IMG/VR virus record: IMGVR_UViG_2531839473_000007
Direction: 5' to 3' (one strand)
Source of the DNA: a virus
Taxonomy: Duplodnaviria; Heunggongvirae; Uroviricota; Caudoviricetes
DNA: 5,878 nt
Part shown: piece by piece, positions 1-5,878 of the stretch
Position numbering within the stretch: position 1 is the stretch's first letter
Layout: each line of letters begins with the position of its first letter
Notes under the pieces: generated by a model
Told to the model about the DNA's origin: nothing
Database searches by the model: none
Seen by the model: the letters and a program-made list of their open reading frames with translations, nothing else
Program-made: the position numbers and the translations under genes

Positions 1-43
1 CGGAGCAGACGCTCACGCTGTGCGATGATGTGCGGGCCTGCCG

Positions 44-1930
44 GTGTACGGGGAGATACCGTTTAACCCGAACACCCGTGAGGTGACGACGGCGTGCATC
101 AGCCTGTTCCGCTACCAGGCGCAGGTGCGGCCCTCGCAGGTGCGTTCAAAAGACCACACGTTTAAGGTGCCGGACTGGCCGGGTATTTACATTGAGGATG
201 CTGAAAACCTCAACGGGCAACTGAAGCAGTACAAAATCCTGGACTGGCCGGGGCGCTACAAGGACGAGCAGCATGGTCAGGACTTTACCCGCTACCGGCT
301 GGAAGGGCTGCGTAACAGTGCTGAAACCGCCACAGGTATCAGTAACTCCCCGGCGCTGTGGCCGGGACGGCGGTTCACCCTGACGGGGCATCCGGTACAG
401 GGAGCGAACCCGAACCGTGAGTGGCAGGTGGTGAGCAGCACGCTGACGGGGAGCCAGCCGCAGGCGCTGCACGGCAGTCACGGTGAAGGAACGACGCTGA
501 GTAACCAGTTTGAGGTGATACCGGCAGACAGGACGTGGCGTCACGCGCCGCTGCCGAAGCCGAAGGTGGACGGCCCGCAGAGTGCCATCGTGACCGGGCC
601 GAAGGGCGAGGAGATATTCTGCGACGAACATGGCCGGGTACGGGTGAAGTTTCACTGGGACCGTTATCACGGTATGACGGAGGAGAGTTCATGCTGGATA
701 CGGGTGTCGCAGGCGTGGGCGGGAGCGGGGTTCGGTAATCTGGCGATACCGCGTGTGGGTCAGGAAGTGATAGTGGACTTTCTGAACGGGGACCCGGACC
801 AGCCCATCGTCACGGGACGCACCTACCATGAGGACAACCGTTCACCGGGGGATTTACCGGGCACGAAGACGCAGATGACGATACGGTCGAAGACCTATAA
901 AGGAAGCGGATTTAACGAGCTGCGGTTTGAAGACGCCACGGGCGGTGAGCAGGTGTATATCCATGTGCAGAAGAACATGGACACGGAGGTGCTTCACGAC
1001 CGGACGACGGACGTGAAGCATGACCACACGGAGACCATCGGGAACAACCAGAAAATCACGGTGGGGCTGGGCCAGACGGTGACGGTGGGGAAAGAGAATG
1101 CCGGAGGGCATGACCAGACCATCACGGTGGCCCATGACCGGAGCATCACGGTGCGCAACGACCAGACGCTGAAGGTGACGAACGACCGGCGGGTGAACGT
1201 CAGCCACGATGACGGTCTGTACGTCAGAAACGACCGAAAGGTGACGGTGGAAGGGAAGCAGGAGCACAAAACGACAGGAAACCACATCAGCCTGGTGGAG
1301 GGAAAACACAGCCTGGAGGTGAAAGGCGACCTGGCGAGGAAGATTACCGGCGCGCTGGGAATGAAGGTCCGGGATGAAATCGTACTGGAGAGCGGCGGTA
1401 AAATCACCCTGAAGGTGGGCGGCTCGTTCGTTGTCGTTCATTCTGGTGGCGTGGATATTGCCGGGCCGAAGATAAACCTGAACGGCGGGGGCAGTGCGGG
1501 GACACCGGTGGGGACGATGCAGCCGGGTGTACTGGCGGCGCTGGCGGATGACGGGGGTGATGAAGAAGGCGAAGATGACGGGCAGGGCAATGGCGACTCC
1601 GGTGATGGAGAGGGGGGGGCCGGAGATGATGATAGTGGAAACGATTCGGACAATTCAGATGATGATGAAAAGGAAATTGTTTCTATTAGTTGGTCCTATG
1701 GTAACAATCGGACAAAAGTTCAGGATACATCCAGACACTATGTAGACCTCAATCTCCATGTGCAGACAAAAGGGTATAGTCCTGGGGAAAGTGTGTCCGT
1801 CGAAATAAAATATGATGACTTTGATGGTATGGAAAGATCTCTTGCTGTTAGCGGCACGGTAGATGAATCAGGTGAGATGGTTGTTGAGCAGGTTTTATCT
1901 GGGGCAGACGTCTGTACTTTAGATGAGTAG
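44..1930 (+). CDS. vgrG: T6SS spike protein VgrG (vgrG1), 3' portion with C-terminal extension. The open frame starts at GTG 44 after a TGA at 26-28, but the vgrG reading continues upstream in another frame (apparent 1-bp deletion near nt 30-32), so this is a frameshifted gene or a sequencing error.
   Basis: Translation carries VgrG core motifs (FKVPDWPGIYIEDAENLNGQ, YKDEQHGQDFTRYRLEGLRNSAETATG, FHWDRYHG, gp5-like beta-helix repeats such as VKHDHTETIGNNQKITVGLGQTVTVG). It aligns residue-by-residue with the vgrG2 N-terminal region at 5509-5878. Stop TAG at 1928-1930. Confidence 0.9.
   Translation: MYGEIPFNPNTREVTTACISLFRYQAQVRPSQVRSKDHTFKVPDWPGIYIEDAENLNGQLKQYKILDWPGRYKDEQHGQDFTRYRLEGLRNSAETATGISNSPALWPGRRFTLTGHPVQGANPNREWQVVSSTLTGSQPQALHGSHGEGTTLSNQFEVIPADRTWRHAPLPKPKVDGPQSAIVTGPKGEEIFCDEHGRVRVKFHWDRYHGMTEESSCWIRVSQAWAGAGFGNLAIPRVGQEVIVDFLNGDPDQPIVTGRTYHEDNRSPGDLPGTKTQMTIRSKTYKGSGFNELRFEDATGGEQVYIHVQKNMDTEVLHDRTTDVKHDHTETIGNNQKITVGLGQTVTVGKENAGGHDQTITVAHDRSITVRNDQTLKVTNDRRVNVSHDDGLYVRNDRKVTVEGKQEHKTTGNHISLVEGKHSLEVKGDLARKITGALGMKVRDEIVLESGGKITLKVGGSFVVVHSGGVDIAGPKINLNGGGSAGTPVGTMQPGVLAALADDGGDEEGEDDGQGNGDSGDGEGGAGDDDSGNDSDNSDDDEKEIVSISWSYGNNRTKVQDTSRHYVDLNLHVQTKGYSPGESVSVEIKYDDFDGMERSLAVSGTVDESGEMVVEQVLSGADVCTLDE
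1547..1675 (+). other. Acidic low-complexity linker inside vgrG1 (D/E/G/S/N-rich, about 43 codons) between the VgrG core and the C-terminal domain; contains a G8 homopolymer.
   Basis: Translation ADDGGDEEGEDDGQGNGDSGDGEGGAGDDDSGNDSDNSDDDEK. Nucleotide composition switches from GC-rich to AT-rich within this segment. Confidence 0.8.
1612..1619 (+). repeat. G8 homopolymeric tract inside the vgrG1 coding sequence (codons GAG GGG GGG GCC).
   Basis: Eight consecutive G read directly at 1612-1619. Confidence 0.9.
1676..1927 (+). other. VgrG1 C-terminal extension domain of unknown function (about 84 aa, AT-rich); candidate cargo or adaptor-binding module.
   Basis: Translation KEIVSISWSYGNNRTKVQDTSRHYVDLNLHVQTKGYSPGESVSVEIKYDDFDGMERSLAVSGTVDESGEMVVEQVLSGADVCTLDE follows the gp5-like repeats and acidic linker. 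Its composition matches the downstream AT-rich cassette, not the vgrG core. Confidence 0.5.
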
Positions 1931-2095
1931 TTGTTTGGTAATATATGGCTGATGTTGTTGAATAAGAATTATATGATTAGCTGATCATTTAGATGACAGA
2001 ATACATACTACTATGTTGTATTCACTTAAAGTCTGGCGATTGTTTACATGACAGTTTTACGTGATACTTATTCGTTGAATCAGTAAGGGCTTATT

Positions 2096-2236
2096 ATGGC
2101 AAAAAAAGTTACAGCTAGTGCGGGAAAACAAAAATCGACTGTTAATGTAAAAAGACCTGCATGGTCTGATGTATATGAAGGATATCCAAAAGTTAATGGA
2201 GGTACTGAAATTGAGAGTGATTTGCCTATGAAATAA
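2096..2236 (+). other. N-terminal segment (46 codons) of the tae4-like effector gene, ending at an in-frame TAA (2234-2236) and continuing in the same frame as ORF 2237-2662.
   Basis: ATG at 2096 with Shine-Dalgarno TAAGGG at 2084-2089 (6-nt spacer). Translation MAKKVTASAGKQKSTVNVKRPAWSDVYEGYPKVNGGTEIESDLPMK. Same frame as the downstream catalytic ORF, separated only by TAA. Confidence 0.5.
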
Positions 2237-2662
2237 TTGTTTACATCAATTTTTGGGCCTGATTATGATACTACGCAATTCAATAATGGTTGTGCTACAA
2301 GAGTATCTCTTGGATTACTTTCTGAAGGATTAAAAAGAGTGGGGGAAAGAGATATTGTTATTAGTGAAAAATCTCATATCCATTATGGGAAATCAATAGA
2401 GCCCGGAGCTGCAAGATTAAAAGATTTTCTGATAAAAATATGGGGAAATGCAGATTATGTCATTAAATATCCTCTAAGCTTTGACGATGTAAGCTCGGTA
2501 TTAAATGATAAAAAAGGTGTTTATATAATGGTTTATAAAAGACCTGCGGATCATGGTGGTGCTACGGGACATGCTACACTATGGACTGGTAACAGAGCCA
2601 TTGGCGGTAATGACCATGCTGATTCCAGTGCTTTTGCAATCTATTTTTGGGAATTGAAATAA
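2237..2662 (+). CDS. Tae4-like T6SS peptidoglycan amidase effector (papain-like Cys-His hydrolase), catalytic portion. Likely a pseudogene or disrupted gene, because the natural start and RBS lie upstream at 2096 beyond an in-frame TAA.
   Basis: Motifs NNGCATRVSLGL (candidate catalytic Cys) and GHATLWTGN (candidate catalytic His), followed by GGNDHAD, fit the Tae4-family pattern as recalled. Size and AT-rich composition suit an effector cassette. The only in-frame start before the Cys is TTG at 2237, with no RBS. Confidence 0.55.
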   Translation: MFTSIFGPDYDTTQFNNGCATRVSLGLLSEGLKRVGERDIVISEKSHIHYGKSIEPGAARLKDFLIKIWGNADYVIKYPLSFDDVSSVLNDKKGVYIMVYKRPADHGGATGHATLWTGNRAIGGNDHADSSAFAIYFWELK

Positions 2663-3096
2663 TGAAAGCTATATTTTTTATATTCTGTATTTTTTTTATG
2701 GGAAATTCATTGTTATATTCAGAGGCTAAAGCCAGTGAATCAGAAAGTACTCTGGATGATTATAAAATATTTACACTCGCTAAATGCATTACCAGTAATT
2801 ATGAAAAAATGGGGGTTGATTTTACAAAACTACCATTGAAAGATAACACTATGGGATTTATTGATATTGATGCTGGACTCGCTTTTTATCGAAATAAGGA
2901 TAGTGTTTTAGCATCTTTCATTAATAAAAAAACAGGGGGTTTTTACAGGCCAAAACAAACTAGTGGTGATTTAGCATCTTCAAATATGGTTATATACGAC
3001 TGCGTAAATTTTTATCATTCAAAAGAGTTGGGTGTATTTCTAAAAAAAATCATTCATGAGAGGACTGTCGAAATTGAGAGAAACGCACTCGAATAG
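2662..3096 (+). CDS. Periplasmic immunity protein candidate (Tai4-like by synteny) with an N-terminal signal peptide.
   Basis: ATG at 2662 overlaps the upstream stop (TAATG). Signal peptide MKAIFFIFCIFFMGNSLLYSEAKA, then a hydrophilic mature protein of about 120 aa. Sits immediately downstream of the amidase effector, as in effector-immunity pairs. The ORF-track start (TTG 2647) is less plausible than ATG 2662. Confidence 0.5.
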   Translation: MKAIFFIFCIFFMGNSLLYSEAKASESESTLDDYKIFTLAKCITSNYEKMGVDFTKLPLKDNTMGFIDIDAGLAFYRNKDSVLASFINKKTGGFYRPKQTSGDLASSNMVIYDCVNFYHSKELGVFLKKIIHERTVEIERNALE

Positions 3097-3271
3097 ATAA
3101 TTCTGGCGGTGACTTTGTTTTTTTTGGATGCAATGCAATATATAAAAATTGTATTTGTTCGAAAATAATATAAAATATCCGAGAAAAATATCATTCGCTA
3201 TTAAAGTGTCTAAGCGTTTTTACATAAGTACTTTACATCGTTTAGTTTAAAAACGCGGCTATCAATAAATG

Positions 3272-3288
3272 TCGCAAAGGATTTGCGA
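3272..3288. promoter_or_regulatory. Perfect 7-bp inverted repeat TCGCAAA-gga-TTTGCGA about 45 bp upstream of the PAAR start, in an AT-rich intergenic region; candidate operator or promoter element.
   Basis: Palindrome read directly. TTGCGA within it could serve as a -35-like hexamer, with TATACA about 19 bp downstream. No strong assignment. Confidence 0.25.
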
Positions 3289-3331
3289 TATAATTCAATA
3301 TGTAAATTATACAACACATAAGGAAATTTAT

Positions 3332-3616
3332 ATGCCCACAGCAGCCAGACTCAGCGATAAAGGCACCCAGCATGACGGTTATTATGAGACCGCCATTATT
3401 GCAGGCTCCTCCTCCGTCTTTATTGATGGTATGCCCGCCGCCCGTCAGGGCGATCCGCTGACACCGCATTCCAAACCCGACCATCCCCCTCACCCCCGTA
3501 AAATCGCAGGCGGCTCTGCCACTGTCTTTATTGACGGTAAACCTGCCGCCAGAACCGGCGATGCCATTGACTGTGGCGGCGTGGTTATCGGTGGCGGCAC
3601 GGTAAATATAGGCTGA
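3332..3616 (+). CDS. Stand-alone PAAR-domain protein (T6SS spike-sharpening tip), 94 aa.
   Basis: Three PAAR-type motifs (TAARLSD, PAARQGD, PAARTGD) with G/I-rich beta-strand spacers. Shine-Dalgarno AAGGAAA 6 nt before ATG 3332. Stop TGA at 3614-3616. The ORF-track upstream ATG at 3269 lacks an RBS, and the PAAR domain begins at Met 3332. Confidence 0.9.
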   Translation: MPTAARLSDKGTQHDGYYETAIIAGSSSVFIDGMPAARQGDPLTPHSKPDHPPHPRKIAGGSATVFIDGKPAARTGDAIDCGGVVIGGGTVNIG

Positions 3617-3705
3617 TTAATTATCAGGGAGGCTGTATGCCCTCAGAAGGATTACGTTTCACGCTGTCGGTGGCCGGCATTGTGGAGATGGCGACGGCGG
3701 TGGTC
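3612..3705 (+). repeat. Direct repeat copy 1 (about 94 bp, about 90 percent identical to 4898-4987): TGATTAAT junction, Shine-Dalgarno GGGAGG, and the first 23 codons of vgrG.
   Basis: Alignment by eye: gctgattaat..cagggagg..atgccctcagaaggattacgtttcacgctgtcggtggccggcattgtggagatggcgacggcggtggt versus the vgrG2 5' region. Confidence 0.9.
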
Positions 3706-4398
3706 GTAGAGGACGGCATATTTGGAAAAAATACATACGACGCAGTGAAAATATTTCAGCGGTATAATGGGTTAAATGATGATGGCATCGTAGGGCCACA
3801 AACCTGGCGGAAATTGGGTGTTCCTGAACTTTTAACGCGAAGTTCATCAGGCTCTCCCGCCAGCCCTTCTTCGGGGCCATCCCGGAGCCCTTCTGCTGAT
3901 TCAAATGGTACTGTTGCTGAGACTGGTGATGGATTCTGTTTCCCATTCCCTGCACTTCCTGCGAGATCGTGGACAAACGGCGGTCGTCAATTTGGGGCGT
4001 CACGCAGTGGGGGCCGCAGACATGCCGGTTGTGATTTGATATTCCCCCGAGGAACGCTTATTTATGCTGTTGCTGATGGCATATTAGTTCAGCCCCCATA
4101 TCCATTTTACGAAGGTACTTCTGCTGTAGAAATTAGACATGGCAACCTTCTCCTTCGCTATGGTGAAATTATTAATGGGTCATACGTAGGTGGGCAAACG
4201 GTTCAAAAAGGTCAGGTTATTGCTAAGGTAGGAAGGCTGCATTCGGGTTCATCTATGTTGCATCTGGAGATTTATACGAATGCGACCTTATCGGGTGACC
4301 TTACAGATCGCAACAGAGCGCCTTATCAAAGACGTTCTGATGTGACAGATCCTGCCCCATATCTGGATATCTGGAAAAATAACCTGCCTACCCTCTGA
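3637..4398 (+). CDS. Chimeric putative T6SS effector: vgrG-derived N-terminus (23 aa), then a partial peptidoglycan-binding (PG_binding_1-like) motif, a Ser/Pro-rich linker and an M23/LytM-like peptidase domain.
   Basis: N-terminus MPSEGLRFTLSVAGIVEMATAVV matches the vgrG2 start MSSEGLRFTLSVDGIVEMATAVV. DGIFGKNTYDAVKIFQRYNGLNDDGIVGPQTWRKLG matches the second half of the PG_binding_1 consensus. M23-like blocks: HAGCD (HxxxD), GTLIYAVADGILV, VEIRHGNLLLRYGEI, GQTVQKGQVIAKVG, SMLHLEIY, VTDPAPYL. Shine-Dalgarno GGGAGG precedes ATG 3637. Confidence 0.75.
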   Translation: MPSEGLRFTLSVAGIVEMATAVVVEDGIFGKNTYDAVKIFQRYNGLNDDGIVGPQTWRKLGVPELLTRSSSGSPASPSSGPSRSPSADSNGTVAETGDGFCFPFPALPARSWTNGGRQFGASRSGGRRHAGCDLIFPRGTLIYAVADGILVQPPYPFYEGTSAVEIRHGNLLLRYGEIINGSYVGGQTVQKGQVIAKVGRLHSGSSMLHLEIYTNATLSGDLTDRNRAPYQRRSDVTDPAPYLDIWKNNLPTL

Positions 4399-4417: not shown

Positions 4418-4882
4418 ATGTTCAAAAAGATAATACTATTTTTAACGGTGATATCTTCGAGTTTTGTTGTTTGTCTTGCGGCTGATTCAGAAAAGATATT
4501 ATCAGTAGATCCTGTTGTGAATAATTTTGGCGTTGATGAAGTCGTAGGGTTGCCTCATCCTGTTTGTACTTTGAGTCTGGCTGAAAATAATGAGAAACAT
4601 CTTTATAATTATGTTGAGGGCGGTATCTGCCCTGTGGGCGGTGAAAGTTGTCCTTATTCAGCCGTCATAAAACTGAATGGCAAGATGGCGATATTAAAAC
4701 AGATATCGACAAATAAAAATATCAGTTTTTTTAAGAATGATGAGGTATCGATTATCACAACACAAAGCCCAGTTAAAGGAGCTGTGGTGGATGAAGAGGG
4801 TGGTGATGTGAATGCCGTTATTGTAATCAAAACAAAAAATAGCGAAATAAAACTTAATATGTCCGGGTACTGTGGTATTTAA
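4418..4882 (+). CDS. Putative periplasmic immunity protein for the M23-like effector (secreted, Cys-containing, no family recognised).
   Basis: Signal peptide MFKKIILFLTVISSSFVVCLA followed by ADSEK. Four Cys in the mature part (C50, C71, C78, C152). Shine-Dalgarno AAGGA 9 nt before ATG 4418. AT-rich. Immediately downstream of the effector. Confidence 0.5.
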   Translation: MFKKIILFLTVISSSFVVCLAADSEKILSVDPVVNNFGVDEVVGLPHPVCTLSLAENNEKHLYNYVEGGICPVGGESCPYSAVIKLNGKMAILKQISTNKNISFFKNDEVSIITTQSPVKGAVVDEEGGDVNAVIVIKTKNSEIKLNMSGYCGI

Positions 4883-4897
4883 AACCGGGCTATTATC

Positions 4898-4987
4898 GCT
4901 GATTAATCAAGGGAGGTCATATGTCCTCAGAAGGATTACGTTTCACGCTGTCGGTGGACGGTATTGTGGAGATGGCGACGGCAGTGG
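4898..4987 (+). repeat. Direct repeat copy 2: the authentic vgrG2 translation-initiation region and first 23 codons.
   Basis: Same alignment as copy 1; gctgattaat at 4898-4907, GGGAGG at 4911-4916, ATG at 4921. Confidence 0.9.
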
Positions 4988-5878
4988 TGAGCTTCCGTCT
5001 GTACCAGCACCACTGCACACCGTTCATCCTGGATGTGGATATCGCCAGCGGACTGTCTGACCTGACGGCGGAGGATTTTCTGGAGAAAAGCGCGGTGCTG
5101 ACGGTCTGGCAGGGCGACACTGCACAGCGTTACGTCAGCGGTATCGTGACGGAGGTGCAGCTCGGTGAGAACAACGACTGGCAGATGCGTTATTCCCTGA
5201 GCATCAGCCCGCCGCTGTGGCGGGCAGGGTTACGGCAGAACTTCCGTATCTTCCAGCAGCAGGACATCGGGACGATATCAGCACAGCTTCTTGAAGAGAA
5301 CGGGGTGACGGCGTGGATGCCGCTGTTCTATGAGGCGCACCCGGCGCGGGAGTTCTGCGTGCAGTACGGGGAGAGCGACCTGGCGTTCCTGACCCGGCTG
5401 TGGGCGGAGGAAGGTATCTTCTTTTATGAGCGCTGCAGTCAGGAAGGGCCGGAACAGAAGCTGGCGGTGTGTGATGACGTGGCGGGGCTGACGGGAATGG
5501 GGGCGCTGGCGTTTAACCCGGACACGACGACCGGGGGAACGACGGAGTACATCAGCGAGTTTCGTTACCGTGCGCAGATAAGCGTGGCGTCGGTGGAGAC
5601 GCAGGATTATACGTTCAAAACGCCGGGGTGGCCGGGGTACTACAGCCATGCCGGGGAGAGCCTGAACGGGCAGGGAACGCAGTACGAGATATTTGATTAT
5701 CCGGGGCGTTTCAAGGATGAGCAGCACGGCCAGGACTTTGCGCGTTACCAGACGGAAGGGTGGCGGAACGGGGCGGAGACGGCGAGCGGGGTGTGTAACA
5801 CGGCGCGACTGTGGCCGGGAACGCGGTTCCGGCTGACGGGCCATCCCTCAGGGACGCTGAACCGGGAATGGCAGGTTG
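4921..5878 (+). CDS. vgrG: T6SS spike protein VgrG (vgrG2), N-terminal about 319 codons; 3' end beyond the window.
   Basis: Open frame from ATG 4921 to the window end with no stop (translated by hand). Begins MSSEGLRFTLSVDGIVEMATAVVSFRLYQ and continues with VgrG core motifs (TFKTPGWPGYY, FKDEQHGQDFARYQTEGWRNGAETASG). Strong Shine-Dalgarno AAGGGAGG. Confidence 0.92.
   Translation, partial: MSSEGLRFTLSVDGIVEMATAVVSFRLYQHHCTPFILDVDIASGLSDLTAEDFLEKSAVLTVWQGDTAQRYVSGIVTEVQLGENNDWQMRYSLSISPPLWRAGLRQNFRIFQQQDIGTISAQLLEENGVTAWMPLFYEAHPAREFCVQYGESDLAFLTRLWAEEGIFFYERCSQEGPEQKLAVCDDVAGLTGMGALAFNPDTTTGGTTEYISEFRYRAQISVASVETQDYTFKTPGWPGYYSHAGESLNGQGTQYEIFDYPGRFKDEQHGQDFARYQTEGWRNGAETASGVCNTARLWPGTRFRLTGHPSGTLNREWQV

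Follow-up and report, generated by a model that had tools for sequence, protein, structure and literature searches.

A G8 homopolymer in the linker of an Escherichia coli vgrG gene is very probably an incidental slippage hotspot that slipped once in a decaying vgrG-tae4 cassette

A run of eight G residues in vgrG, a type VI secretion system (T6SS) gene of Escherichia coli M863, was analyzed in a window of 5,878 nt (IMG/VR virus record IMGVR_UViG_2531839473_000007), which is the entire contig of this strain. The initial annotation had suggested that this tract could act as a switch or be a mutational hotspot. It was found that G8 is very probably an incidental homopolymer in a Gly-rich linker, i.e., a generic slippage hotspot, which slipped once to G9 in a vgrG-tae4 cassette undergoing decay. 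The hotspot part of the earlier suggestion gained support from a natural G9 allele, its predicted truncation and the resulting orphan open reading frame (ORF). The switch part lost ground in view of a single mutational event, non-conservation of the tract, its length of 8 nt, a dead tae4 gene and the retention of G8 in nine assemblies.

Direct reading of the sequence placed the eight consecutive G at positions 1612-1619 of the plus strand, preceded by A1611 and followed by C1620, between the flanking sequences GGTGATGGAGA and CCGGAGATGATGAT. It is the sole run of at least six G or C bases anywhere in the window. In frame 2 of the vgrG ORF at 44-1930, the tract is read as GA[G GGG GGG G]CC, with GAG at 1610, and encodes the peptide E-G-G-A. 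This peptide is part of DDGGDEEGEDDGQGNGDSGDGEGGAGDDDSGNDSDNSDDDEKE, an acidic low-complexity linker rich in Asp, Glu, Gly and Ser (about 1547-1675, plus strand) that connects the beta-helix core to the C-terminal domain. The Pfam domains of the spike core are located upstream and the C-terminal domain downstream, and the homology to the cores of paralogous vgrG genes stops at about 1551. Thus, the tract indeed lies at the core-to-extension junction of vgrG and within the coding sequence of an acidic linker, as had been noted initially. The minus strand reads C8 at 1612-1619; only shadow ORFs were found on this strand, e.g., at 1438-1653, and nothing pointed to a function for C8.

The consequences of altered tract lengths were simulated. 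With one additional G (G9) or two fewer (G6), the core ended with ...GDGEGGGRR* at a TGA codon (1627-1629, plus strand). With one G fewer (G7) or two additional (G10), 42 out-of-frame junk residues preceded a TAG codon (1743-1745, plus strand). The TGA was also encountered in nature, in E. coli GCA_020333615.1 (locus L010, gene 1-1902), and no allele of the TAG kind was found. Hence, the prediction that a slip would truncate VgrG just before its C-terminal domain held both in the simulation and for the natural G9 allele with its predicted stop. The part removed is the C-terminal beta-sandwich domain of about 85 aa (1676-1927, plus strand), together with the stop codon that extends to 1930.

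The tract was compared at the DNA level in 11 Escherichia assemblies with this linker and C-terminal domain. Nine of them possessed G8 (M863, MFDS1022581, STEC_7v, GCA_000194175.2, GCA_047669315.1, GCA_016669985.1, GCA_016687295.1, Escherichia sp. E4385 and GCA_053710785.1), and two possessed G9, namely E. coli GCA_020333615.1 (L010) and GCA_040711045.1 (L011). Thus, tract length varied among related isolates, and the invariance that would speak against a hotspot was not seen. The G9 allele had first been spotted by means of a 113-aa protein (P0056; EIG9095649.1 / ENJ8775208.1), which reads MATPVMERGG followed by AGDDDSGN.... Since its first ten residues derive from the alternative frame starting at ATG 1590-1592 (plus strand) and the remainder from the normal frame of the domain, one extra G is present. 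In both G9 contigs, the core gene ended with ...GGGRR* and overlapped with an orphan 113-aa ORF carrying the C-terminal domain, called from this alternative-frame ATG (1862-2203 in L010 and 1369-1710 in L011).

A homopolymer miscall in sequencing or assembly had to be considered, affecting either G8 in the M863 contig or G9 in the two assemblies. The window represents a short contig bounded by repeats, was taken from an early draft assembly and shows a private deletion of 1 nt at a distance of 31 nt from the contig end, and STEC_7v differs from the other assemblies at two T8 runs. However, G8 was identical in nine independent assemblies, one of which is a complete genome, and an artefact is thus excluded for G8. 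Regarding G9, the two assemblies were deposited separately and share a private base substitution, which renders a miscall unlikely here as well. Taken as a whole, this explanation is very improbable.

The private substitution common to both G9 isolates is a G to T single-nucleotide polymorphism at window position 3085. Thus, G9 represents one inherited event and not repeated switching. This finding bears on the alternative that the tract is a true contingency locus, i.e., that stochastic, reversible poly-G phase variation alternates between a cargo-loading VgrG with the C-terminal domain and a bare spike and thereby tunes how a population delivers Tae4 or composes its spikes, in the same manner as the poly-G tract of rmpA governs mucoidy in Klebsiella. 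The location in an inter-domain linker, with OFF variants retaining a complete spike core, would be in line with such a locus, as would the natural G9 OFF allele, the uninterrupted G8 in all in-frame Escherichia copies, and the Enterobacteriaceae precedent of a poly-G tract in the flexible linker between the two RmpA domains. However, only one mutational event was observed, and neither G7 or G10 nor in-frame G5 or G11 alleles nor a revertant were found in this small sample. Moreover, E. coli is normally mismatch-repair proficient. With 8 bases, the tract is shorter than accepted phase-variation cut-offs, and that of rmpA is G10. In a Klebsiella study, 8-nt tracts were excluded as shorter than the length limits described earlier for genes with phase variation and at least 9 nt were used (bioRxiv 10.1101/2025.09.12.675794). 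In addition, the tract was not conserved in orthologues with the same peptide or the same domain, the run was expected from composition (24-32% of shuffles), and the lineage in which the OFF allele originated already had a dead cargo gene. Two hallmarks of contingency loci were thus observed, namely a frame-shifting tract inside an ORF and length polymorphism among close isolates, whereas tract length (8 versus a cut-off of at least 9), recurrence or reversion, and conservation or over-representation spoke against such a locus, which is considered unlikely here.

Further alleles were sought in larger sequence collections. Exact look-up of the simulated G7, G9, G5 and G11 products, with N-termini in the style of PGAP and Prodigal, gave no match in a collection of 15 billion proteins; the real G9 allele was overlooked by this approach because the G9 contigs start inside vgrG. 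A protein search with a chimera of the linker and the G7 tail also gave no match, which is weak evidence as only cluster representatives were covered and the query was of low complexity. The variable-gap DNA pattern GGTGATGGAGAN{4,13}CCGGAGATGATGATAGTGG yielded 0 matches in GTDB species representatives and 0 in JGI metagenomes. Thus, the allele is rare and absent from GTDB representatives and JGI metagenomes. Among complete E. coli genomes, 1 of 5426 carried this allele of the C-terminal domain.

In order to determine if the run is expected by chance, two types of randomization were used. Of 200 shuffles of the window that preserved dinucleotides, 64 (32%) contained at least one G8, with a mean of 0.56. 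When synonymous codons of the intact vgrG gene were permuted with the protein and the codon usage of the gene kept fixed, a G run of at least 8 occurred anywhere in 24% of the trials and at exactly the tract site in 6.7%. GGG is the most frequent Gly codon of the intact gene (30 of 90). Thus, G8 is not statistically unusual for the sequence composition, and no more is needed to explain the run than two Gly residues in succession, flanked by Glu (GAG) and Ala (GCN), in a G-rich gene.

Orthologues did not share the tract, not even when they contained the same peptide. Superficieibacter electus possesses near-identical linker DNA and the same GEGGAG peptide, which is encoded there by GAG GGT GGT GCC. 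In Citrobacter and Salmonella, the linker sequences differed and were devoid of G runs of at least 6 bases. Among the GTDB species-representative loci that reach upstream of the C-terminal domain, a linker run of at least 7 bases was found in 0 of 13. The Superficieibacter codons have a place in a variant of the switch idea, according to which two synonymous GGT to GGG changes in Escherichia, starting from an ancestor as in Superficieibacter, created a contingency switch of low rate, by which E. coli populations detach the Tae4-docking domain from the spike and maintain a heritable, reversible mixture of 'armed' and 'bare' spikes. This variant is regarded as quite improbable.

The lack of conservation also applies to a second way in which the tract could be functional. 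Programmed transcriptional slippage or ribosomal frameshifting could give rise to two VgrG isoforms, with and without the C-terminal domain, from one and the same allele. A homopolymer in a linker would suit this purpose, and a +1 shift leads immediately to a stop and, thus, to a clean core-only product. However, apart from the run not being conserved in orthologues, the alternative frames yield no meaningful product (RR* or 42 junk residues), and neither a stimulatory RNA structure (fold z-score of 0.07 for 1545-1685) nor a three-tier G-quadruplex motif was detected. Furthermore, the slippage sites known from bacteria mostly consist of A or T, with at least 9 bases in a row. Programmed slippage is thus extremely unlikely. 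A role of the tract as a G-quadruplex or RNA structure was rejected separately, since only weak two-tier G-quadruplex possibilities were present and the fold z-score was as given above.

The retention of G8 was followed across more distant Escherichia copies. G8 was kept in cassettes with an overall identity of 94-97% that reside on divergent cores (L012, L013, L014 of Escherichia sp. E4385, and L015). Linker and C-terminal domain were near-invariant in the sampled Escherichia copies, with about 7 variable sites in 430 nt. Thus, the spread of the cassette is recent, and the sampled copies represent little evolutionary time.

Besides G8, length differences were observed at two T8 runs (2690-2697 and 3118-3125), both of which are T7 in E. 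coli STEC_7v alone. The putative Tai4 immunity gene contains the first run in its 5' part, and T7 shortens the called ORF there from 144 to 132 aa; the second run is intergenic. The remaining indels among near-identical assemblies are thus also located in 8-bp homopolymers, which fits a generic effect of run length.

Several points weigh against an incidental hotspot and are to be set against the evidence described above. First, the retention of G8 covers only the short evolutionary time reflected by these few variable sites. Second, length polymorphism among close relatives is what a contingency locus would also show. Third, the sample at the DNA level comprised 11 assemblies only, and frameshifted alleles are under-reported in protein collections, given that PGAP suppresses pseudogene products and that searches cover cluster representatives. 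Fourth, the T7 differences of STEC_7v may be sequencing errors of an older assembly rather than real variation.

The gene affected by the slip was characterized further. In the window, vgrG (tssI) occupies 1-1930 on the plus strand and is truncated at its 5' end by the contig start. The ORF at 44-1930 encodes 628 aa and matches EGB59212.1 exactly. Owing to the loss of 1 nt at about position 31, a deletion found only in the M863 contig, its start was called at GTG 44. At window positions 30-32, this contig contains one G fewer (GATGT-GCGGG versus GATGTGGCGGG), and the G was present in all five other assemblies covering the site (5/5). Its absence shifts the reading frame of vgrG at a distance of 31 nt from the end of the contig. 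An error of assembly or sequencing at the end of a repeat-bounded contig is the probable cause, although a genuine second lesion in this vgrG gene is conceivable. In the complete genome of E. coli MFDS1022581 (NZ_CP169399.1), which is 99.97% identical over the whole window, the first vgrG is intact and encodes 820 aa (WP_071533189.1). The 820-aa vgrG of the complete-genome locus L001 is annotated with a non-canonical ATC start at 7169-7171, upstream of the region covered by the window, in the context gggaggtcATCACG, the paralogue reading gggaggtcatATG; the start codon of the 820-aa copy may thus be damaged or unusual.

The core of the protein is of the gp27/gp5 type, as revealed by matches to the Pfam families Phage_GPD (8e-76), Phage_base_V (2e-14) and Gp5_trimer_C (9e-31). 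Across the region comprising core, linker and C-terminal domain, the GC content falls from about 0.60 to about 0.35. The C-terminal domain had no Pfam match. Its signature, SWSYG...SRHYVDLNLH..T..Y.PGE, is conserved in the VgrG C-termini of Salmonella and Citrobacter, and the motif was conserved in 18 homologues. An AlphaFold2 model of the last 92 aa, based on an alignment of 19 sequences, revealed a five-stranded beta-sandwich with a predicted local distance difference test score (pLDDT) of 80.7. The best match of this model in the PDB was weak (9jg8_C; E = 0.054, Foldseek probability of 0.99); 9jg8_C is a subunit of a Bacteroides T6SS cargo/adaptor complex on the VgrG spike. Directly 3' of the C-terminal domain, a gene of the Tae4-family amidases followed by a small ORF was present in 12 of the 14 Enterobacteriaceae loci that reach downstream. 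The two exceptions are Escherichia sp. E4385 (L014), without a Tae4 hit downstream, and Superficieibacter (L016), where the downstream region was not examined. The arrangement was seen in loci of Escherichia coli, Citrobacter and Salmonella. Hence, the C-terminal domain is probably a cargo-adaptor domain that docks Tae4, as judged from gene order and the structural model. With a gp27/gp5 core, a folded C-terminal extension and a downstream effector/immunity pair, the protein qualifies as a specialized VgrG of predicted adaptor function.

The C-terminal domain was also found at the ends of PAAR proteins of about 220 aa in Massilia, Duganella and Pseudoduganella and on VgrG-like proteins in Hydrogenophaga (L019-L029). 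It appears to be a portable module without a Pfam family that is common to both spike components.

The gene for the presumed cargo of the C-terminal domain, a tae4-family amidase gene (2096-2662, plus strand), is split by a stop codon. Codon 47 is changed from GAA to TAA (E47*) at 2234-2236 in the window and in all near-identical relatives, both G9 isolates included. In all near-identical strains, tae4 is annotated as separate ORFs of 46 aa and 141 aa. In other E. coli lineages (L012, L013 and L015), codon 47 is GAA and the gene is intact (188 aa). The catalytic Cys and His motifs are located in the downstream fragment, which starts with TTG directly after the stop.

Taken together, the following course of events is proposed. 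Gly-Gly happens to be encoded by GGG GGG between GAG and GCC in a G-rich linker, giving G8 as a by-product. As an 8-bp G:C run, it is a local hotspot of replication slippage like any such run in E. coli. G9, presumably produced by a +1 slip, then arose and was inherited in one sublineage. In this sublineage, vgrG is split into a core spike with the end ...GGGRR* and an orphan ORF; the latter encodes the C-terminal beta-sandwich domain, the most probable docking site of the Tae4 amidase effector encoded downstream. The frameshift is best regarded as a stage in the decay of a cassette with a cargo gene that had already been inactivated and not as a programmed reversible ON/OFF switch; relaxed selection may account for the persistence of G9.

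This case provides a sequence-verified natural example in which homopolymer slippage would strip a T6SS spike of its predicted cargo-adaptor domain and leave the core intact. Slippage may thus be one route of decay or remodeling of vgrG-effector cassettes. It is also of relevance for annotation, since what has been annotated as a 'hypothetical protein' of 113 aa (EIG9095649.1 / ENJ8775208.1) corresponds to the C-terminal domain orphaned by the frameshift in vgrG, and the downstream ORFs of 46 aa and 141 aa are the halves of a tae4 interrupted by a nonsense codon. If the tract were a switch, repeat-mediated phase variation would be extended to T6SS effector loading in E. coli, making this the first T6SS cargo adaptor with repeat-mediated phase variation; the evidence does not favor this.

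The remainder of the window contains a putative immunity gene (putative Tai4; 2662-3096), a PAAR gene (3332-3616), a gene for a protein with peptidoglycan-binding and M23 peptidase domains (3637-4398), a further putative immunity gene (4418-4882) and a second vgrG truncated at its 3' end (4921-5878). Since the contig begins within one vgrG and ends within another, it represents part of a T6SS vgrG-effector island delimited by repeats. The first ~22 codons of the peptidoglycan-binding/M23 gene (MPSEGLRFTLSVAGIVEMATAVV; 3637-3704) are nearly identical to the N-terminus of the following vgrG (4921-4988), including the upstream ribosome-binding site region. The M23 effector and immunity cassette appears to have been inserted into the 5' end of vgrG, which would have created a chimeric start. 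In L012, L013 and L015, vgrG follows directly after the PAAR gene, without the M23 cassette.

Signs of rearrangement were also observed around the linker. Comparison of the Escherichia copies revealed 12-33 variable sites per 100 nt for the vgrG core before about position 1500 (1100-1500), and linker, C-terminal domain, tae4 and tai4 (1500-3300) are almost invariant. This contrast in divergence at about 1500 marks a recombination boundary about 100 nt upstream of G8 and shows that the cassette is swapped between cores. Moreover, in a 142-aa E. coli protein (P0057; TFY41358.1), an unrelated N-terminus of 27 residues (MTSLKTSIKTITYLSDTGCLEIQGASL) is joined to ...QGNGDSGDGEGGAGDDD and the C-terminal domain. 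The junction corresponds to about window position 1583, within the same linker, and is known here from the protein alone; it indicates a rearrangement or insertion breakpoint inside the linker in another isolate.

A search of the literature retrieved no report of homopolymer phase variation of T6SS genes or vgrG or of repeat-mediated vgrG variation. EAEC (enteroaggregative E. coli) VgrG1 is a specialized ('evolved') VgrG, the C-terminal TTR domain of which recruits Tle1. The VgrG described here resembles this type in its gp27/gp5 core, linker, small beta-sandwich C-terminal domain, and effector and immunity genes directly downstream. It differs in that a DUF2345 segment is absent, the C-terminal domain has no Pfam match and only the weak structural match to 9jg8_C, and the predicted cargo is a Tae4-family amidase.

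With respect to the tract itself, the poly-G tract in rmpA of hypervirulent Klebsiella pneumoniae is the nearest analogue. It is likewise intragenic, occurs in a member of the Enterobacteriaceae and encodes a flexible inter-domain linker (bioRxiv 10.1101/2025.09.12.675794). A slip of +1 or -1 cuts RmpA before its C-terminal functional domain, too, and truncated alleles are present in natural isolates. In contrast, the rmpA tract is G10 in the ON state, changed its length frequently and independently over the phylogeny, and was shown by experiment to switch reversibly between ON and OFF, whereas the vgrG tract is G8, changed in a single event without sign of reversion and is not conserved in orthologues. 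The classical contingency loci with poly-G/C tracts in Neisseria, Haemophilus and Campylobacter (e.g., lgt, hmbR and pgtA) share with vgrG an intragenic G homopolymer and a frame shift by slipped-strand mispairing, but they typically comprise at least 9 bases, are selected across strains and switch at high rates. In some of these organisms, mismatch repair is lacking or attenuated.

Organism and run length agree with the 8-bp G:C indel hotspots in leuP/Q/V/T of E. coli mutation-accumulation lines (PMC8510543). These data were obtained for tRNA genes in mismatch-repair-defective laboratory lines, whereas vgrG concerns a protein-coding linker in a lineage of natural isolates. In E. coli, longer homopolymers have exponentially higher indel rates, and G:C runs of 8 bp are hotspots of rare occurrence (PMC8510543). 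Given this exponential dependence on run length, the change from G8 to G9 can be accounted for without any special function.

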